Notes under the pieces: generated by a model
Seen by the model: the letters and a program-made list of their open reading frames with translations, nothing else
The model's database searches: none
What the model was told of the DNA's origin: nothing
Shown here: piece after piece, positions 2,196-20,114 of the stretch
Layout: every line of letters begins with the position of its first letter
Numbering within the stretch: the stretch's first letter is position 1
Program-made: the position numbers and the translations under genes
Origin: Escherichia phage phiEC1
Sequence record: KY608965.1
Direction: 5' to 3' (one strand)
Length of the DNA stretch: 64,000 bases

Positions 2196-2460
2196 CTAAT
2201 TTCCTTAATTGATATTGCAACGAGCTAATAATTTCTTCGTTAATTTTAATATACATGTCACGCAAGAAAGGTTTTAACCCATCACGAATAATTGCTAACG
2301 TATCACCTTTACATAAATTAACCAAATAAGGATGATCTAAAGCATCCCAACCAGGCTGATTAGCATACATACCATAATTTTCTTCCATCATAGCATTCAG
2401 GCGTTTGATATGATTAATGTGGGCTTCAATAGCATCAATCTGGAGTTGTTTAAGATTCAT
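2179..2460 (-). CDS. hypothetical protein (93 aa)
   Basis: ATG start; ATGA overlap with upstream ORF. Confidence 0.5.
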   Translation of the reverse strand: MNLKQLQIDAIEAHINHIKRLNAMMEENYGMYANQPGWDALDHPYLVNLCKGDTLAIIRDGLKPFLRDMYIKINEEIISSLQYQLRKLDDENN

Positions 2461-2921
2461 TAGTAAAGGTCCTCAGAGTAAAGTTCTTTTTCATTACCAC
2501 CACGTTCAATACGTACTTGTCCAGCGTAAGTTGCAATAATCATTGCTTCTTCACGTGTCCAATAATTACTATATTGGTCAATAAACCCTTGGTCATCATC
2601 ACAAACTTGTTGAGTAACTAATTGAGGTTTAACTACATCTAAAACTTCTGCCATATCTTTAGAATAATGACGAGCACCTGGAATAATAAGAGTTCGTCCA
2701 TCTTTTAATTTAAAACGGTTGGCTGCGCAGACAATTCGTCGTTGATACTTTTGGTTTTCATCCCAATACAGAGTCTGCCAACAGATTTCAGGAACTTCGT
2801 CTAAAACATTTTGTTCTGTATATTCACCACCGTAAGAAGCTAATTTAGCAGCCAGACTTTCCGGAGTCTCACGCGACAAAGCTTTATCTAACAGAGCTAA
2901 ACGTTCTTTAAAAGTTTTCAT
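2460..2921 (-). CDS. hypothetical protein (153 aa)
   Basis: ATG start; ATGA coupling with the ORF at 2918-3247. Confidence 0.55.
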
Positions 2922-3247
2922 TTAAACCATCCTTTAATACGTTGCCAAATAGATTTTTGTGATTGTTTATTTACACCAATCGAACGAATAACCGGTTGTG
3001 ACTGCTGATATTCTTTATAATCTTCTTTATAGATTTCGTAAGCTGCATCAACAAATGAACTGATCGCTGCCATGTAGTTTTTACGAAGGCCAAATGGCGC
3101 GTCATTATTTTCACGAATAACCGTATATTGGCCTGCTTTAATCTTTACAATTGTCCCTAAATAAGCCCCGTGGTACCAAATATCCCATCCTTCCTGAGTA
3201 GGTTCTGCACATTTACGAAGTTCGTTAATAATATTCAGCTTATTCAT
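2918..3247 (-). CDS. hypothetical protein (109 aa)
   Basis: ATG start immediately downstream of motA. Confidence 0.55.
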
Positions 3248-3257
3248 TATGTATTCC

Positions 3258-3890
3258 TCACAGTACGTTAGTTACAAGGGTAATGATTTCTTTGGACACA
3301 TTAGGGAAGTCAATGTAAGTATATTTACCACCGATCTTAATCTTAACATCATTTTCAAGAGAAGTAAACAGCTTTGATTCAGTTTCTGACATGTTGTATG
3401 CAAAGATTCTAAGAGCGCCATCTCGTCGAATTTCGATCTGACGAATACCTAGAACTCGTTTAGCGAATCGAACTTCTAAGTTACTACGGTTTTCACCAAT
3501 TTCTTTAACTTCAACTTTATCTTTAATATTTTCAAAAACAAAGTTTGCTAATTCATGCATTTCAGGAGTAACTCCACGTGCTTTTCTGGTGTTACGTTTC
3601 TGAAGAAGTTCTGGAGCATTTTCTTGGGCAAAGAGGTCTGCAGCTTTTTGGATAATATCCATTGCTTCGCCTGTTGCTACAAGTCCATCACCGGATTTTT
3701 CGACTAAACCTTTCTTAATCAATACACCAATGTTAGAGTTAACAACTGATGCATTGTATTCTGCTTCCAGAGCTTCACGGACATTGGCAGCAGTGGTGAA
3801 GTTGTTCTTAATGATATAAACCATTATTGCAGCAGTTTTTTCATTCAGAGCGTTTTCAGAAGCTTTGATGATGTAAGTAACTTTAGACAT
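3258..3890 (-). CDS. motA: middle-transcription activator MotA
   Basis: 210 aa; N-terminus MSKVTYIIKAS... and central NSNIGVLIKKGLVEKSGDGL segment match T4 MotA as recalled; GGAG SD. Confidence 0.9.
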   Translation of the reverse strand: MSKVTYIIKASENALNEKTAAIMVYIIKNNFTTAANVREALEAEYNASVVNSNIGVLIKKGLVEKSGDGLVATGEAMDIIQKAADLFAQENAPELLQKRNTRKARGVTPEMHELANFVFENIKDKVEVKEIGENRSNLEVRFAKRVLGIRQIEIRRDGALRIFAYNMSETESKLFTSLENDVKIKIGGKYTYIDFPNVSKEIITLVTNVL

Positions 3891-7036: not shown

Positions 7037-7300
7037 TCATATCTCAACTTCCGCGAGTTCCATATATCCTTTGTTGATAACCTCTTTAAGGTCTTTAGAA
7101 AGAATAACACCAAAATGGTCGTTCATATGTCCGTTAACTAAACGAGTTATTTCAGCTTCAGATGACATATAAGGCACGTCTGAGTCCCAATGAGATAGAC
7201 TTAAATGAGTATAAATCATCCCTTCGTCATCTGCGGTGTTGTACATTGAAACAAATTCGCCTGTTACTTTATGTTTTGCGTAGAAAAATTTAAATTTCAT
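7037..7300 (-). CDS. hypothetical protein (87 aa)
   Basis: ATG start, SD AGAGGA. Confidence 0.5.
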   Translation of the reverse strand: MKFKFFYAKHKVTGEFVSMYNTADDEGMIYTHLSLSHWDSDVPYMSSEAEITRLVNGHMNDHFGVILSKDLKEVINKGYMELAEVEI

Positions 7301-12814: not shown

Positions 12815-14635
12815 TTAACCAAGCATCCAGTCTTTACGGAGTTCAGGGTCGTTACCCATGAGCATTTCAAATAGTTCTTTCCAATTTTCAGGAAGTTTAA
12901 CTACGTCGTACACAGGGTTTTGAATCATTTCTTTATATTCATCCCGCTGAAGTGAGCCCAATCCCTTGATGTATCGAATACTATGCTTAGGCAGCGTATC
13001 TTTAGCTTCTTCATACTCAGCTACAGTATAAAACCATTTTTGAGTTTTGCCAATTTGTGCAATAATTACAGGTGTTTTAACAAAGCGAATACGTCCTTGT
13101 TCAAACAATTCAGGCCAATTACTAAAGAAAGCAAGCAAAGCAGGATAAATACTTCCAAGGCCGTCATGATCGGCATCGGTCATAATTGCAATATTACGAT
13201 AGTTCGTATTCTCTGCCTTTTCACCAAGAATAAGACCTGTGATAGCACAGATATCAAAGAGCTCTTTGTTCTTCATCATATCAGCATATGACATACCCCA
13301 GCTATTCATCACCTTACCACGTAATGGGAATCCACCGTGTAGTTCACGGTCACGAACATCAATGAGATAACCAATTGCCGAATCACCTTCTGTTAAAAAC
13401 AATGTCGTATCTGCATCTTTACCACATTGGTTAGCTTTAATATGCTTATGAACCTTAGCTTTAGTTGCCTTTTTAGCTGCTTTAGTTTCTGCAGCCTTTT
13501 CTGCTGCCAATTTACGAGCTAATGCTGCTTCAACAATAGGCATAATCAAGGCTTCGTTTTTAAGAAGCGCCTGAGCAATTTTCTTAGCATCTAATTGGAT
13601 ATGATTACGAATATCACCATACGTTGACGTTAAACGTTCTTTAGTCTGAGAATCAAAACGCATGTTGCTCATGTCTCTAATAAACATCAACATTGTGAGA
13701 CATTCTTTAACACGAGCTTTAGTGACTTCAATACCCTTATATTTCTTTTTAATACCGGGCAAAAGATGTTCGCAGATATCATCCATTACACATTCAACAT
13801 GATGACCACCATTTTTAGTATGGATGTTATTCACATAAGTTAAATGACGGAAGCCATCTGGTGATGTTGTGAATGCTATAGAGACTTTATCATTTTCTTG
13901 AATGATGTTATCTTCGCCAAATTGTTTAGCAAATCGTTTAAAATTACCATCAACCTTTTTACCATTAAATGTGAACTTGATATCAGGATAAACGACTGCC
14001 AATGTTTGAAGCCGGTCTAAAGTAATATCTAAATAAATTTGAGATAAATTATGTTCTTCAAATGAAGAGAAATCAGGAGTGAAGATTACTTTAGTGCCTT
14101 TACCTTTAGATTTCTTAGAAGACCATGATTTGTTTTCCATTCCGTTTGAACAGTTAACAGTGATTTCATTTTCGCCATCTGACGTGATGCCTGTAAACAA
14201 CGTAGAGAAGATATTAGTTAAACTACTCCCGACGCCGTTCATACCACCAGTCTTGCGTTCAGAATCATCGCCAAAGTTACCACCAGCCTTTGGAATAGTC
14301 CAGGCTGCTACAGGCCCAGGAATTTGTTCACCTGTTTGGTCGGTAACTAAACCTTGAGGAATACCACGTCCGTTATCTTCCACCGAAACTTGATTATTTT
14401 TAATTTGCACATCAATTTTATTTGCAAACTTAAATGATGTACGAATAGCTTCATCAACCGAGTTGTCAATAATCTCATCGATTAATTTAACCAGACCAGG
14501 AACATATTCAACTTGTTGATATTTACCAAACAAAAAACGCTCATGTGCTTCTTTAGCCGAAGAACCAATATACATACCACTGCGTTTCTTAATATGTTCT
14601 ACATCTGACAATACCTTAATTTCATTTTTAATCAT
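12815..14635 (-). CDS. 39: DNA topoisomerase II large subunit (GyrB-like), fused gene 39 (no separate gene 60)
   Basis: 606 aa continuous ORF; MIKNEIKVLSDVEHIKKRSGMYIGSS... with GHKL ATPase and Toprim signatures; T4 splits this into 39 plus 60. Confidence 0.95.
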   Translation of the reverse strand: MIKNEIKVLSDVEHIKKRSGMYIGSSAKEAHERFLFGKYQQVEYVPGLVKLIDEIIDNSVDEAIRTSFKFANKIDVQIKNNQVSVEDNGRGIPQGLVTDQTGEQIPGPVAAWTIPKAGGNFGDDSERKTGGMNGVGSSLTNIFSTLFTGITSDGENEITVNCSNGMENKSWSSKKSKGKGTKVIFTPDFSSFEEHNLSQIYLDITLDRLQTLAVVYPDIKFTFNGKKVDGNFKRFAKQFGEDNIIQENDKVSIAFTTSPDGFRHLTYVNNIHTKNGGHHVECVMDDICEHLLPGIKKKYKGIEVTKARVKECLTMLMFIRDMSNMRFDSQTKERLTSTYGDIRNHIQLDAKKIAQALLKNEALIMPIVEAALARKLAAEKAAETKAAKKATKAKVHKHIKANQCGKDADTTLFLTEGDSAIGYLIDVRDRELHGGFPLRGKVMNSWGMSYADMMKNKELFDICAITGLILGEKAENTNYRNIAIMTDADHDGLGSIYPALLAFFSNWPELFEQGRIRFVKTPVIIAQIGKTQKWFYTVAEYEEAKDTLPKHSIRYIKGLGSLQRDEYKEMIQNPVYDVVKLPENWKELFEMLMGNDPELRKDWMLG

Positions 14636-14680
14636 GTTGTCTCCTCGTTATGAAGGTATTCTATCATCCGAAATCTAAAG

Positions 14681-14698
14681 CAAAAAGGGCCGAAGCCC
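14681..14698 (-). terminator. intrinsic terminator (GGGC-UUCG-GCCC) downstream of the 14699-15142 gene
   Basis: Short GC hairpin with UUCG loop directly after the stop codon, followed by a U-rich tract. Confidence 0.5.
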
Positions 14699-15142
14699 TT
14701 ATTTAAATTTAATTTTCTGAAGTGCATCAATTGCAGCTAAACGCCCTTGTTCACTTTTAACTGTAATGACCACATCGCCTGATACGATCACCGAACCATC
14801 AACAAATTCTATAGAGCCTTTTTTGAAATCAACAGCTGTATCTGGTTCCGGAACTTCTTCAAAGAATTTAAATTCTGCACCATAAATCAGAATATCACCT
14901 TGCATACTAATGATTGTACGTCCAGGTCCATCGGTTTCGGCGGCAATCATTGAAACACCGTAACCAATCATCTCTTCTACAATAAAATCTCTTGATAATA
15001 AAACTGTATGCAGAGTAGTGTTAAGACGTTTACCAGTTGTATTAAGAATTCTCAAGAAATTATCTTCCTGACCTTTGATAATACGGTATTTCTTACCAAC
15101 TTCAAAACCTTTAAAACCTTTAAAAGCCGTATTAAAAGCCAT
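14699..15142 (-). CDS. hypothetical protein (147 aa)
   Basis: ATG start; 39.1/39.2 position. Confidence 0.55.
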   Translation of the reverse strand: MAFNTAFKGFKGFEVGKKYRIIKGQEDNFLRILNTTGKRLNTTLHTVLLSRDFIVEEMIGYGVSMIAAETDGPGRTIISMQGDILIYGAEFKFFEEVPEPDTAVDFKKGSIEFVDGSVIVSGDVVITVKSEQGRLAAIDALQKIKFK

Positions 15143-15144
15143 AA

Positions 15145-15324
15145 TTAACCCTTCTTAAGTAAGTCGTAAAAACCACCATTCACATGTTTAGGAGCAGAAA
15201 CCCGACGAGTAGACAGACGATGACATTCAGGGCAAACATCGTTTTCTCGTTCAGAAATCCTTTTAATTTTTTCATATTCATGACCACAATCTTCAGATTG
15301 GCATTTATAGTCGTATAATGGCAT
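15145..15324 (-). CDS. zinc-ribbon protein (59 aa, two CxxC pairs)
   Basis: [15 protein letters not shown]...CPECHRL; ATG overlaps upstream stop as TAATG; below track cutoff. Confidence 0.5.
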   Translation of the reverse strand: MPLYDYKCQSEDCGHEYEKIKRISERENDVCPECHRLSTRRVSAPKHVNGGFYDLLKKG

Positions 15325-15737
15325 TATTGTTCCTTAAAGTGAGCTTTCAACATTTGATACAAAGACCATGCCTGGTCGTTATTTTTGATAGTAATCGTCA
15401 TCGCAGGAAATTCAGACAATTCGTCAAGTTCGCCAGAATCTTGCTCTTCAGACTCTTGATATGGATTTCCAACTTCGTCAAAGAACTCTGCTTCATTCGT
15501 GGAGAGCCAGATAAAGTTTTCATCAAGGATATCACCGCCTGTTGCGTATCCAACCATGCCAGTAGATGTCACAATTTTAGTAGGACGTCCAAGATGGTCA
15601 ACATCTAATACTTTAAATGGTTCCATGCCAAGACGTCGTGCATAAATCCCATTATCAGTGTGGTCTTTAATAAACTCTTCTTGGGCACGTTTATCTTTAA
15701 ATTGGTACCATGAGTTAACGCGGAATTTATTAGCCAT
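15324..15737 (-). CDS. hypothetical protein (137 aa)
   Basis: Track start is TTG; first ATG (MANKFRV...) at 15737 has AAGGAA SD and TAATG coupling. Confidence 0.55.
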
Positions 15738-15964
15738 TAGTAAGTTTCCTTCCAATAAGTTGTACCATTTTCAGTGATTTCACGGAAGATACCATAGATA
15801 GGCATTTCATCACCGAGTTTTTCGTAAACGTAAACCACTTCGGTGTAGCATAAAAATTCGGTCCAGCTTTTCTGTACAACAACTAAATCAGGATTAAACA
15901 GAACATCTTCAAACTCATCGATGTTTGAATCAGTAGTTACGTTTTTAATGATTTGACGTTTCAT
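15737..15964 (-). CDS. hypothetical protein (75 aa)
   Basis: Start set to ATG at 15964 (MKRQII...) with AGAGGAG SD; the longer track ORF would run through the promoter hairpin. Confidence 0.5.
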
Positions 15965-15992
15965 AATATTCTCCTCTTGTTTTGATAGGTCT

Positions 15993-16022
15993 ATAGTATC
16001 ATAGACCATAGTTGTTGTACAT
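15993..16022 (-). promoter_or_regulatory. early-type promoter (-10 TACTAT in loop of GGTCTAT/ATAGACC hairpin)
   Basis: Inverted repeat 15988-16007; -35-like ATGTAC. Confidence 0.4.
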
Positions 16023-16546
16023 CATTTTAGCAAAATAAAATCAACTTGTTCTGCCAATGAACGTCTAAACATTAATTGACAACTTCCGAGGATGAAATCA
16101 GGTGCTTCATAGACCGCGATGTAGTATCCTTTAGCTTTCAAGAGTTCAACATCCACCTGGTCATCAAACCATGCATAAACCGCGTCAACGCTTTCAAATC
16201 CAAAATAGAACCCTTGAGCCCAATCTTTGTTCAATTCAAATGTGTGCTCAATTCTATGGTATCTTAAGATATTTTGTTCAAGGAGTTTGTCTTCATTTAC
16301 TGTAGGACGATTAGGGACATTATAGTTGTCGCCGTGATGGTAGAAGTTACCTGAGATTATTCCATGTTTATCAAGGAACTCCCATGTTTCTTCAGAGTTG
16401 TCAGTGCCAGACCAACCGTAAGGTGAGCGAGGTTCTTTATTCCAAGAGGTTTCCCAAATTCTGACGGCTTTACCGTCTTCGATAACAATTCCTGGTAATG
16501 ATTCACGTTGAGTACAAAAACTACGTTCTACGCGATAAACTAACAT
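16022..16546 (-). CDS. hypothetical protein (174 aa)
   Basis: ATG start with AGAGGAG SD. Confidence 0.55.
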   Translation of the reverse strand: MLVYRVERSFCTQRESLPGIVIEDGKAVRIWETSWNKEPRSPYGWSGTDNSEETWEFLDKHGIISGNFYHHGDNYNVPNRPTVNEDKLLEQNILRYHRIEHTFELNKDWAQGFYFGFESVDAVYAWFDDQVDVELLKAKGYYIAVYEAPDFILGSCQLMFRRSLAEQVDFILLK

Positions 16547-16572
16547 ATTATTCTCCTCTGGTTGATATGGTT

Positions 16573-16601
16573 ATAATATCAAAACCAGAGGAGAAGTAAA
16601 C
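16573..16601 (-). promoter_or_regulatory. early promoter (GTTTAC N17 TATTAT) with -10 in loop of SD-sequestering inverted repeat
   Basis: Arms CTCCTCTGGTT/AACCAGAGGAG (16556-16592); the 3' arm contains the GAGGAG SD of the 16022-16546 gene. Confidence 0.55.
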
Positions 16602-16605
16602 AACT

Positions 16606-17025
16606 TTATGCGAAAGCAGCTGGGCTATATTTTTTAATTTGGAATTCAGGAACTACCATGAACTGCCCGGCAAAAACAATGTTATAAAGCTTGACACCAT
16701 CTTCTACCCAACGGTCGCTAATAAATCCAGCGATTTGCTTAGTTTTCCATGGCGTTCCATCAGTTGCCGCAGCAATAGTGAATTCATGGTCTTTTTCAAC
16801 AGAAACTGATCTGCATAGTCCCCATTTGAACGCTTTTTCTTCTGGCTCAATGAACTGGCTTTTAACGTAACCAATGTTGCCATCAGCATCACGAACTTTA
16901 ACTTCATTACGACCAAAAACCGGATCACTCACAGAAAGAACTTCAACCAACTTCCCGGCAACTTTAGAGCGAGAAGCAACAGATACATATACGTAATCAC
17001 CTGTAGAGAGATTTACAATATTCAT
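16606..17025 (-). CDS. hypothetical protein, member 1 of a tandem paralogue triplet (139 aa)
   Basis: Shares N-terminal ASRSK.AG.LVEV and C-terminal GFISD.WVEDG.KLYNIVF.G.F.VV motifs with 17035-17490. Confidence 0.55.
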   Translation of the reverse strand: MNIVNLSTGDYVYVSVASRSKVAGKLVEVLSVSDPVFGRNEVKVRDADGNIGYVKSQFIEPEEKAFKWGLCRSVSVEKDHEFTIAAATDGTPWKTKQIAGFISDRWVEDGVKLYNIVFAGQFMVVPEFQIKKYSPAAFA

Positions 17026-17034
17026 AATAATTCC

Positions 17035-17490
17035 TTAAGCTTTACGAGGAGACACATAGCGAGTGATTTCAGATTCTTTAACAACTCGGAAGTCACCTAA
17101 GAATACGATATTGTATAACTTTTCACCATCTTCAACCCATTGGTCACTGATGAAGCCGCACATAATATCAGTTTTGTTTGGATAACCATATTCGTCGATG
17201 AAATCAAATTCTTTATCAGTCCGGAATTCAACGCCTTTGCAAAGGGCCCATTTGAACTGTACATTAGGTTCAGTAGAAGCAAAATGAGCGCTCACATGAG
17301 TTTCCAAGAATTTAGGACTTACGTAAGCGTACTGAGTTTCAGTTTTTCCAGAACTAGGAATGATTCGAACTTTAACTTCTTTAACACGTCCGGTACCATT
17401 AGTACGAAGTCCTACCACTTCAACTAGACGACCTGCAGCTTTAGAACGAGATGCAGACGATACACGCTTAATTTCACCAATAGTAATCAT
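17035..17490 (-). CDS. hypothetical protein, member 2 of the paralogue triplet (151 aa)
   Basis: Conserved C-terminal GFISDQWVEDGEKLYNIVFLGDF motif; ATG start. Confidence 0.55.
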   Translation of the reverse strand: MITIGEIKRVSSASRSKAAGRLVEVVGLRTNGTGRVKEVKVRIIPSSGKTETQYAYVSPKFLETHVSAHFASTEPNVQFKWALCKGVEFRTDKEFDFIDEYGYPNKTDIMCGFISDQWVEDGEKLYNIVFLGDFRVVKESEITRYVSPRKA

Positions 17491-17522
17491 AATTTCTCTC
17501 TCTCTTTGTTTAAATTGAATTC

Positions 17523-17551
17523 ATTATACTCCATCCATCCTTGGATGTACA
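17523..17551 (-). promoter_or_regulatory. early promoter (TGTACA N17 TATAAT), repeat family 2
   Basis: Within the ttatactccatccatccttggatgtaca module. Confidence 0.5.
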
Positions 17552-17554
17552 ACA

Positions 17555-18049
17555 TTAATTAAGGATATTAACCACAGCACTACGTGGAACCACACTAAAA
17601 TCACCGGCATGAACAACGTTCAGAAGTTCAACACCGTCTTCAATCCACTGATCAGTTACCCATCCATTTACTGGACCTGCGAACGGACGTCGAATTGAAA
17701 CATATTTACACAACAAATCAGTAGGCTCAATAGGCTTAATCAGAGTACCGTACATACAAGCGATATCCATATCAATACAGATATCTTTAACGGGTTCTAC
17801 TTCTTCAATCAACAGTTCAAAGTCGGTGCTTGGAAGGGCGGTAGTAGAAATTGTACCATATGAATTTTTAATTTCTAAGAATAACCAAGGGCCTTCAACT
17901 TGTTTGATGAAGTTAACAATAGTGAAACTATTACCTTGAGTGGCACCTAAAATTTCACAAAACTTTTCATAAGCTCGCACTGAAGCACCATACCAGTTGA
18001 TTTGGTTTTCATCTTTCAGGATGTAAGTAGCCGTAGTATTGATATTCAT
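17555..18049 (-). CDS. hypothetical protein, member 3 of the paralogue triplet (164 aa; MotB-position)
   Basis: Track start is TTG; ATG at 18049 (MNINTT...) with AGGAAA SD; C-terminal GWVTDQWIEDGVELLNVVHAGDFSVVP motif; sits where T4 has motB. Confidence 0.5.
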   Translation of the reverse strand: MNINTTATYILKDENQINWYGASVRAYEKFCEILGATQGNSFTIVNFIKQVEGPWLFLEIKNSYGTISTTALPSTDFELLIEEVEPVKDICIDMDIACMYGTLIKPIEPTDLLCKYVSIRRPFAGPVNGWVTDQWIEDGVELLNVVHAGDFSVVPRSAVVNILN

Positions 18050-18079
18050 AATGTTTTCCTGTTTGGTTAAGATAGAAAG

Positions 18080-18109
18080 ATTATACTCCAACCATCCTTG
18101 GTTGTAAAC
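18080..18109 (-). promoter_or_regulatory. early promoter (GTTTAC N18 TATAAT), repeat family 2
   Basis: Module gttaagatag...ttatactccaaccatccttggttgtaaac at 18066-18109. Confidence 0.5.
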
Positions 18110-18113
18110 TGGT

Positions 18114-18791
18114 TTATCGCTGTTTTACACTTAACGGGTCAGGATTCTCAGGGACATCTTCAAGGCCAAGCGCATAACGCTGAGCATATTTTAACATCAA
18201 AATATCTTTAGCACAATCATGAATACTATCATGGGCAACGAATCCTTTTAGCGTACCCATCGGTAATGGACACATACTTAATCCTCGTGTCAACGAGTAA
18301 GCTTCGATTGCCGTACGAATATCACGTTGAGCCCAGAATTTAACCGGTTCTAATTTATCAGTATCAATATCTGGTTCAAGAACACCTTCATCACGATAGA
18401 GGTCACGAATCAAATCGACCAATATCGGGAAGTCAAAGCTCATACCACGGCACCACATCTGTGATTTCCATTGGTCAACTTTATTAGCTCGACAATAATC
18501 TAAAAAGATTTTAATGCCTTCAAGCGTAGTGACATCGTCTTCAGACGGGGCCAAGTTTTTACGTGCTTCAGCCGATTGTTCTTTCCACCATTTCATAGTG
18601 GATTTAGCGAAAACTCGCTTCCCTTTCTGAGAAGCTAAATTAAATTTAATTCGCTTACCTCGTTGAACAAGTTCTTCAAATGATTCAACAACTTCAGGGT
18701 CGGAATTATATGCAATAACCGCAAGGTCAATAACAGCCGCTTTTGATGTATTGCCGAATGTTTCAAAATCTATAATAACATCAGTGCTCAT
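18114..18791 (-). CDS. dexA: exonuclease A (DnaQ-like 3'-5' exonuclease)
   Basis: 225 aa; IIDFETFG...AVIDLAVIA and C-terminal HDSIHDCAKDILM motifs match T4 DexA as recalled. Confidence 0.9.
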   Translation of the reverse strand: MSTDVIIDFETFGNTSKAAVIDLAVIAYNSDPEVVESFEELVQRGKRIKFNLASQKGKRVFAKSTMKWWKEQSAEARKNLAPSEDDVTTLEGIKIFLDYCRANKVDQWKSQMWCRGMSFDFPILVDLIRDLYRDEGVLEPDIDTDKLEPVKFWAQRDIRTAIEAYSLTRGLSMCPLPMGTLKGFVAHDSIHDCAKDILMLKYAQRYALGLEDVPENPDPLSVKQR

Positions 18792-18800
18792 AATTTTCTC

Positions 18801-20114
18801 TCAAATAAAATGGACGTCAAAACGACCACGAGTTGTGCCGACATATAATAACTGTTTAGCTAATTCTGAATCGGCATAATGGATACACGGTGTATAAACA
18901 AAGGCCGTGTCAACAGACATACCCTGGGCCTTATGGAAGGTTGATACTGGTAGTGCCTTCACCTTAGTGAACATACGTTTAGCATCCCAGAATTCGCTCC
19001 ATGGAGCTTTACCACCTTTATTCCAAAATTTGTATGTTTCTGCGGTCTTAGCCAAAAACAAATTGAATTTATAAAGCTCTTCTTCGGAAGAAATAACCTT
19101 TATATCTTCGCGGATGTATTCTTCATCATCCCCATATGTTTCTACTGTAAGATTCCAGTATCGTATCATATATTCGCCTGAAACACCGCGTGCTTTAACG
19201 AATGTAGACGTTTCTACAGCGTCTCGAATACGAACGAATTGCCCGTTATTGAAAAGCATTTCGGTCATATTTTTGCCATCTAGCTTATATGTCTTAGTAA
19301 GTGGCTCTTGTAGAACAATGACTTCGTCTTTAATAAATGGCTTTTCTGTTTCAAGAAGTTTTCGGCGAATAATTGAATTCAACTTATCTACTGACTTATT
19401 TGTGAATGCCATCATTCGATTTTCGAAAAGGTCTTCAGGAGTTTTAACGACATTAAAATAGTTCATCATATACGATTTAAGGTCTGTATATCCATGAACA
19501 CCATGCCCATCAACTACTTTATCATAAATCCATTTGCCATTACGAATATCAGTCGCAACATCAATAATTGGTGCATTGCTACGTTTAACTTCTGTAAGGT
19601 TGCATTGCACGAAGTCTTTGTGAGTGAAGAAAGGACTTAGATACGCAGTTGATTCGCCTGGGTCTACCGGTCGAATCTGACATCGGTCACCAATTCCAAT
19701 TACTGTGCACCATTTAGGGATACTAGCTAACATTATTTTAAACAGAGAACGGTCGCACATTGACGCTTCATCAAATAACAGTACACGGCACAAGGCTAAG
19801 TCGGGAACCTTTTTCTGTTCAAATAATACGTTTTCTTCGTATGTAGTTGGGTTGATTTTAAGAATGCTATGAATAGTCGATGCTTCTTGACCTGCAAGTT
19901 TGCTTAGAACCTTTTTAGCAGCATGTGTAGGGGCTGCTAAAATAATACCTGATTCTCCAGAAGAAATAAGGGCTTCAACGATGAATCTAGTAAGGGTTGT
20001 TTTACCTGTACCAGCAGGCCCGTTAATAGTTACGTGATGTTTCTTTTCTTTAATAGCTTTCATAACAACGTTGAAGGCGTTTTTCTGGCCTTCGGTCAAA
20101 TCATCAAATGTCAT
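18801..20114 (-). CDS. dda: Dda DNA helicase (SF1)
   Basis: 437 aa; MTFDDLTEGQKNAFNVVMKAIKEKKHHVTINGPAGTGKTT Walker A; closely matches T4 Dda as recalled. Confidence 0.95.
   Translation of the reverse strand: MTFDDLTEGQKNAFNVVMKAIKEKKHHVTINGPAGTGKTTLTRFIVEALISSGESGIILAAPTHAAKKVLSKLAGQEASTIHSILKINPTTYEENVLFEQKKVPDLALCRVLLFDEASMCDRSLFKIMLASIPKWCTVIGIGDRCQIRPVDPGESTAYLSPFFTHKDFVQCNLTEVKRSNAPIIDVATDIRNGKWIYDKVVDGHGVHGYTDLKSYMMNYFNVVKTPEDLFENRMMAFTNKSVDKLNSIIRRKLLETEKPFIKDEVIVLQEPLTKTYKLDGKNMTEMLFNNGQFVRIRDAVETSTFVKARGVSGEYMIRYWNLTVETYGDDEEYIREDIKVISSEEELYKFNLFLAKTAETYKFWNKGGKAPWSEFWDAKRMFTKVKALPVSTFHKAQGMSVDTAFVYTPCIHYADSELAKQLLYVGTTRGRFDVHFI

Follow-up and report, generated by a model that had tools for sequence, protein, structure and literature searches.

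The motB locus of an RB69-like T-even phage: motB.1, motB and a second motB-type gene that share a C-terminal domain

Results

Organization of the locus

We analysed a stretch of 64,000 nucleotides from Escherichia phage phiEC1 (KY608965.1), referred to below as the window. Around the trio described below it is 96–98% identical to RB69 and to about 150 other Mosigvirus genomes, and the window is that of an RB69-like (Mosigvirus) T-even phage. An earlier note on this DNA had described three consecutive genes for proteins of 139, 151 and 164 aa. These are minus-strand ORFs at 16606-17025, 17035-17490 and 17555-18049, and the coordinates were exact. The minus strand is the coding strand for every gene of the trio region. 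The position 'upstream of dexA' given to the trio holds in plus-strand coordinates only; transcriptionally the three genes lie downstream of dexA, which occupies 18114-18791 on the minus strand. The genes and features, from high to low coordinates, are as follows.

18801-20114, minus strand: dda
18114-18791, minus strand: dexA
18080-18108, minus strand: promoter-like site before motB.1, TTTACA-17-TATAAT, 11 of 12 consensus matches only
17555-18049, minus strand: motB.1, 164 aa, pI 4.4, intact
17795-18049, minus strand: motB.1 N-terminal domain, residues 1-85; strands and one helix in the AF2 model, pLDDT 82-89
17729-17794, minus strand: motB.1 linker, residues 86-107, with the motif ICIDMDIACMYGTLIKPIEP; disordered in the model, pLDDT <50
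17558-17728, minus strand: motB.1 C-terminal domain, residues 108-164, common module DPTDLLC..GWVTDQWIEDGVELLNVVHAG.FSVVPRS
17523-17551, minus strand: promoter-like site before motB, TGTACA-17-TATAAT, 10 of 12 consensus matches only
17035-17490, minus strand: motB, 151 aa, pI 8.8
17305-17490, minus strand: motB basic KOW-like N-terminal domain, residues 1-62
motB linker, residues 63-78, minus strand
17038-17256, minus strand: motB C-terminal domain, residues 79-151
16606-17025, minus strand: second motB-type gene (RB69ORF010c, 'similar to motB'), 139 aa, pI 6.6
16846-17025, minus strand: second copy N-terminal domain, residues 1-60, followed by a short linker
16609-16830, minus strand: second copy C-terminal domain, residues 66-139
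16022-16546, minus strand: motB.2
15737-16009, minus strand: cef
15324-15755, minus strand: goF
15145-15324, minus strand: 39.2
14699-15142, minus strand: GoF-family gene
12815-14635, minus strand: fused topoisomerase gene 60+39

The 164 residues of MotB.1 are counted from an ATG; a TTG 14 codons further upstream falls within the promoter-like site. Both promoter-like sites are strong and of the sigma-70 type by consensus match only. They are enclosed by a 48-nt direct repeat of 77% identity (17502-17549 and 18059-18106; ..CAAGGATGG.TGGAGTATAAT..), a finding that fits, at the sequence level, an early-promoter architecture common to T-even phages. No promoter-like site of its own precedes the second motB copy. 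It starts 9 nt after the motB stop codon, and the two genes appear from their arrangement to be co-transcribed. A terminator scan returned sites no more frequently than in shuffled sequences. Plus-strand ORFs in the interval 14600-19000 are short and overlap conserved minus-strand genes; the same interval contains no tRNA gene, and Rfam gave only sub-threshold chance matches.

The window and RB69 have motB.2 next to cef, on the side of the second motB copy, whereas in T4, RB3 and GiZh it is found between dexA and motB.1. This difference in position indicates a local rearrangement of gene order. MotB.2 (PHROG 1106) has no Pfam match and has no domain in common with the MotB family. The same early region holds a second pair of paralogues, the RB69ORF005c-type gene (147 aa, 14699-15142, minus strand) and goF (143 aa, 15324-15755, minus strand). 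Both products match PHROG 622 (E 2e-19 and 2e-38, respectively); their direct comparison by BLASTP was not significant (E 0.09).

Family membership of the three proteins

The trio consists of motB.1, motB and a second motB-type paralogue, and all three proteins are members of the MotB family PF17613. This Pfam family (motB, modifier of transcription) has a curated gathering cut-off of 25 bits, applied to the whole-protein score. The 139-, 151- and 164-aa proteins score 77.2, 131.1 and 35.1 bits, the last by its C-terminal domain only, and all are above the cut-off. Every homologue that was found carries a precomputed PF17613 match. In the GenBank annotation of RB69 (2003), the orthologues of the trio are named motB.1, motB and 'similar to motB'. 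The earlier assignment of the trio to the T4 motB locus, as paralogues of MotB, is thereby borne out by both the Pfam scores and the RB69 annotation.

MotB proper is characterized by a KOW-like N-terminal domain, SRSK..AG and a MotB-type C-terminal domain, and both the 151- and the 139-aa protein have this structure. PHROG 1671 (MotB) aligns with residues 1-151 of the former (to 2-166 of 166, E 6e-64) and with residues 5-139 of the latter (to 2-166 of 166, E 1e-51). In the 164-aa protein it matches only the C-terminal 38 residues, short of a full-length two-domain MotB. This protein aligns over its whole length with PHROG 2333 (MotB.1; residues 1-164 to 42-210 of 210, E 3e-82) and is 97% identical to a 164-aa cluster of 181 members.

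Pairwise alignment, which had been proposed as a check, gave a divided result. The 139- and 151-aa proteins align from end to end with 43% identity (BLASTP E 3e-31), while the 164-aa protein shares with them only a C-terminal segment of about 55 residues (36-79 residues in the BLASTP alignments, E 1e-10 and 3e-10). Its N-terminus showed no similarity to the other two proteins by BLASTP or MAFFT. Accordingly, the N-terminal motif ASRSK.AG.LVEV, which the earlier note had ascribed to all three proteins, is present in the 139- and 151-aa proteins and absent from the 164-aa protein. The C-terminal motif is indeed common to the trio. A profile of the C-terminal domain, run against all six-frame ORFs of the 64-kb window, found exactly these three proteins (E 2e-35, 4e-31 and 2e-26) and no fourth match at E<=10.

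Against 1.84 billion representatives, the profile of the C-terminal domain alone gave 36 matches. Among these, every significant match is to a small protein of phage type, either with a KOW-like domain joined to the C-terminal domain or of the MotB.1 kind. A few long repetitive proteins (E 1e-5 to 1e-3) align in several short stretches each and seem to have been matched by chance, through repeats of the GY.TEQWV type. The MotB family is narrow.

The trio and its paralogy are real and represent an ordinary arrangement that had already been described, so that the earlier observation is a correct re-discovery. That the MotB family includes paralogues with a C-terminal domain in common, and that RB69 has motB in two copies, has been published (Patterson-West et al., 2021, PMC7827196). 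These authors list two motB copies, one motB.1 and one 29-aa peptide for RB69, and consider that duplication of one gene may have given rise to the other (PMC7827196). With the GenBank annotation of 2003 and this description at hand, the finding of the trio is in itself of little significance.

Domain architecture, predicted folds and charge

AF2 models built from alignments of 38-40 sequences reached a mean pLDDT of 83.6 for MotB and 79.6 for MotB.1, each with two beta-rich domains and a disordered linker between them. The C-terminal domain, some 55-75 residues long, is present in all three proteins, and its core D-x-W-x-E-x-G-x-x-L-x-N-x-V is invariant. Across the MotB and MotB.1 types, nine positions do not vary (D, W, E, G, L, N, V, G, V); MotB-type domains contain an additional insertion of 17-25 residues. 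The third protein is not a diverged full-length duplicate of the others; MotB.1 has a different N-terminal domain on the common C-terminal domain.

The N-terminal domain of MotB.1 has been grouped with GoF and Frd.2 in a family with an 'LSm-like fold', an SH3-like barrel (Kim et al., 2025, PMC12152347). By BLASTP, MotB.1 was not significantly similar to the GoF-family proteins of the window (E 3.2 for ORF005c); the only link is a weak profile match of ORF005c to the N-terminal part of PHROG 2333 (E 0.006). The KOW profile Pfam PF00467 gave no sequence match. No relatives of MotB or MotB.1 were found by sequence in the PDB (best E 0.5-0.6), and a Foldseek search of predicted structures of viral proteins gave no matches outside this family and other proteins of T4-like phages.

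The three proteins differ strongly in net charge. MotB (pI 8.8) carries +7 on its N-terminal domain and -3 on its C-terminal domain, the second copy (pI 6.6) 0 and +1, and MotB.1 (pI 4.4) -5 and -3. Mean net charges in the MotB family are +5.1 for the N-terminal domain, -4.6 for the linker and -1.2 for the C-terminal domain, and T4 MotB has a pI of 9.2. This charge distribution is new here, as is the SH3/Tudor-like model of the C-terminal domain described below.

The C-terminal domain has previously been read as an OB fold from HHpred, and either domain of MotB was considered a possible DNA binder (PMC7827196). According to that reading, the common domain would be a nucleic-acid-binding element and the trio a set of three DNA or RNA binders whose N-terminal domains give partner specificity. 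Our models make the common domain an SH3/Tudor-like barrel and not an OB fold: structure comparison did not recover the five-stranded topology of OB folds and cold-shock domains. Charge also argues against nucleic acid binding by this domain. Its net charge is -3 in the MotB.1 type and about -1 in the MotB type, the conserved core is acidic (DQWxEDG), and MotB.1 as a whole has the pI of 4.4 given above. We therefore consider a nucleic-acid-binding C-terminal domain unlikely, though it is the best surviving of the alternatives.

Two further features of the proteins were noted. The motif [ILV]xDxD[ILVM][AV][CS]xY...KP[LI], searched as the regular expression D.D[ILVM][ATVLS][CSH].Y, occurs in 91 of 225 family cluster representatives at varying positions: it can open the protein, separate tandem N-terminal domains or immediately precede the C-terminal domain. 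Neither canonical MotB nor T4-type MotB.1 contains it. In the window it is the linker motif of MotB.1 and may be a docking motif. The last residue is Ala in more than 90% of KOW-type MotB representatives (...RKA, ...AFA, ...LYA, ...HFA; codons 17038-17040 and 16609-16611 in the window), and proteins of the MotB.1 type end differently. This conserved residue might be part of a degron or have a structural role.

Age, selection and distribution of the genes

Between motB and the second copy, dS is approximately 2.2 and thus saturated, and amino-acid identity is 43-49%. Compared with orthologues, dN/dS is 0.17-0.34 for motB, 0.06-0.16 for the second copy (RB69, RB3, GiZh) and 0.21-0.27 for motB.1. 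These values, 0.06-0.34 overall, indicate purifying selection on all three genes.

Some properties of the 139-aa protein would fit a duplicate of motB that is decaying and has no function. The IIPxxGKxE hairpin and most of the linker are missing from this shorter protein, its N-terminal domain carries no net charge (+7 in MotB), its gene has no promoter of its own, and T4 does without the gene. On the other hand, its frame is intact in the window, RB69, RB3 and GiZh, its dN/dS is 0.06-0.16, and it has retained the SRSK..AG motif together with all invariant residues of the C-terminal domain. Moreover, C-terminal domains of the second-copy type have also been recombined onto other N-terminal domains, namely in P0155 and P0224. 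Decay of this gene is therefore very improbable.

The earlier note had suggested local gene amplification. A recent amplification with rapid divergence, giving a young, lineage-specific array, would agree with the adjacency of the genes, with the 9-nt distance and apparent co-transcription of motB and its copy, and with short stretches of residual DNA similarity that are in register between these two. It does not agree with saturated synonymous sites and 43-49% identity, nor with the distribution of the second copy. At an identity of at least 80%, the second-copy type is present in 207 of 761 MotB-carrying phage records from two genera, with no record in the 60-80% band. The second copy has orthologues of its own in RB69, RB3 and GiZh that are 87-97% identical and evolve under the constraint given above, and MotB.1 is unlike the other two proteins in its whole N-terminal half. 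As a recent event, amplification at this locus is thus very improbable. That the similarity within the trio arose by chance or from the composition of an AT-rich phage genome has nothing in its favour except the shortness of the motif common with the third protein, and is refuted by the BLASTP E values of 3e-31, 1e-10 and 3e-10, the Pfam scores above the cut-off and a domain profile that matches just the trio in 64 kb.

The occurrence of the pair in a second genus likewise contradicts a recent amplification. The Tequatrovirus phages RB3 and GiZh also contain motB and the second copy, likewise 9 nt apart and 86-90% identical in protein sequence to the pair of the window (window 16606-17490; RB3 2018-2920 and GiZh 2249-3151 of the compared stretches). 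In both phages motB.1 belongs to the T4 type (81% identical to T4) and is only 48-55% identical to motB.1 of the window. Since the pair is 86-90% identical across genera while the adjacent motB.1 reaches 48-55% and T4 MotB 48%, a two-gene cassette seems to have been exchanged between genera, in a mosaic fashion. The sequences thus point to motB and the second copy as a cassette swapped between genera, with T4 carrying a single-gene allele. Recombinants with swapped N- and C-terminal domains exist as well (P0155, P0224).

Record-specific frameshifts in motB.1

In the T4 reference record (AF158101.6 = NC_000866.4), motB.1 contains one extra G near record position 7300 (ATTGGAAGA vs ATTGAAGA). 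The annotated product therefore has 119 aa and ends in GWVTDQWIGRWR* (ORF 3292-3651 of the compared stretch); this record-specific 1-nt insertion deprives it of most of the C-terminal domain. Thirteen other T4-type genomes (T4T, KJ477684-6, MT984581, OL964735/45, OZ-series, RB55, RB59 and others) are without the extra G. Their MotB.1 has 143 aa, and its MotB-type C-terminal domain is complete (895-1326 in two of the compared stretches). Judged from these genomes, natural T4 MotB.1 very probably has 143 aa and a complete C-terminal domain. A comparison of the 3' end of T4 motB.1 with the plasmid collection gave no match.

The motB.1 gene that Kim et al. (2025, PMC12152347) had synthesised was based on NC_000866.4, and they reported a protein of 13.8 kDa. 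The computed masses are 13,804 Da for the 119-aa form and 16,180 Da for the 143-aa form. As the reported mass equals that of the 119-aa form, the heterologous MotB.1 of that study was probably truncated.

A similar case is found in the RB69 record AY303349 (4350-4846 of the compared stretch), where two 1-nt insertions, unique among Mosigvirus records (186 vs 184 nt), split motB.1 into a 132-aa ORF and the 29-aa 'RB69ORF012c'. The gene of the window (17555-18049) is intact. The 29-aa peptide that Patterson-West et al. (2021) list as 'Category 3' therefore represents no separate gene but the C-terminal end of motB.1, cut off in this one record. These record-specific frameshifts are of modest practical value for work on T4 early genes.

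Discussion

We explain the locus by an old duplication that gave rise to motB and its second copy, and by domain shuffling that produced motB.1. The latter is a domain-shuffled relative in which an unrelated acidic N-terminal barrel precedes the common C-terminal domain. All three genes are kept under selection, and their products would combine differing N-terminal activities with one module. We put the probability of this explanation as a whole, including the identity of the three genes, at roughly 85%.

That MotB is a DNA-binding protein, one of the two roles which the earlier note had proposed for the trio, was shown experimentally for the early protein MotB of T4 (PMC7827196). T4 MotB is abundant and binds DNA tightly and non-specifically (PMC7827196, PMC6070864). 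It co-purifies with H-NS and StpA only when DNA is present and alters the footprint of H-NS (PMC7827196, PMC6070864); attempts to show that MotB contacts H-NS directly when DNA is absent did not succeed (PMC7827196). It de-represses about 75 host genes, one third of which belong to the H-NS regulon, is toxic when over-expressed and confers a two-fold benefit in burst size (PMC7827196, PMC6070864).

The basic MotB of the window (pI 8.8) probably acts like its T4 counterpart, with DNA binding that, going by net charge only, would reside mainly in the KOW-like N-terminal domain. The highly conserved and near-neutral to acidic C-terminal domain would then serve as an SH3/Tudor-like interaction module of all three proteins. 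In the second copy, which is neutral, and in MotB.1, which is acidic, the same module would be joined to other N-terminal activities, so that these two would not be redundant DNA binders. The predicted fold and the charge distribution thus offer a testable division of labour between the two domains of MotB.

A more far-reaching possibility, about which we are doubtful, is that the C-terminal domain is a phage-specific SH3/Tudor-like docking module for three different N-terminal activities: the basic KOW-like domain that binds DNA, its neutral variant and the LSm-like domain, which is acidic. The module would direct them to a common target, for example H-NS/StpA-DNA filaments, or bring them together with one another. 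In that case the trio would form a combinatorial kit for taking over the nucleoid or RNA and not a set of redundant DNA-binding proteins. If this were true, the result reported for T4 MotB.1, i.e. no phenotype, would refer to a synthetic 119-aa form without the module, unlike the natural protein of 143 aa.

Comparison with known systems

Among the closest known systems for the predicted folds are the SH3-like barrels of KOW, Tudor, PWWP and BAH domains, such as the tandem Tudor of 53BP1 and the KOW domains of Spt5 and NusG. The proteins of RB69 are close relatives, with 95% identity between the 151-aa protein and RB69 MotB and 97% between the 139-aa protein and RB69ORF010c. MotB of T4 and RB69 is encoded at the same locus, between dexA and cef, and has the same succession of a KOW-like N-terminal domain with SRSKAAG and a C-terminal domain with DQWVEDGxKLYN.VF. 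Identity to T4 MotB is only 48% for the 151-aa and 39% for the 139-aa protein. The linker is shorter in the window, the N-terminal domain of the second copy is neutral where that of T4 MotB is basic, and T4 has one motB compared with two in the window phage.

MotB.1 of the window is 46% identical over 162 residues to the 143-aa form of T4 MotB.1 (E 9e-47). The N-terminal domains align, the C-terminal domain is the same, and in both phages the gene adjoins motB in the early region. T4 MotB.1 belongs to PHROG 2333, to 'Category 2' of Patterson-West et al. (2021) and to the LSm-like-fold family of Kim et al. (2025). The protein of the window differs from it in its length of 164 aa and in a disordered linker of 22 residues with the DMDIACMYGTLIKP motif, which is missing from T4-type MotB.1. 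Gene order differs as well: it is dexA, motB.1, motB, second motB copy, motB.2 in the window and dexA, motB.2, motB.1, motB in T4.
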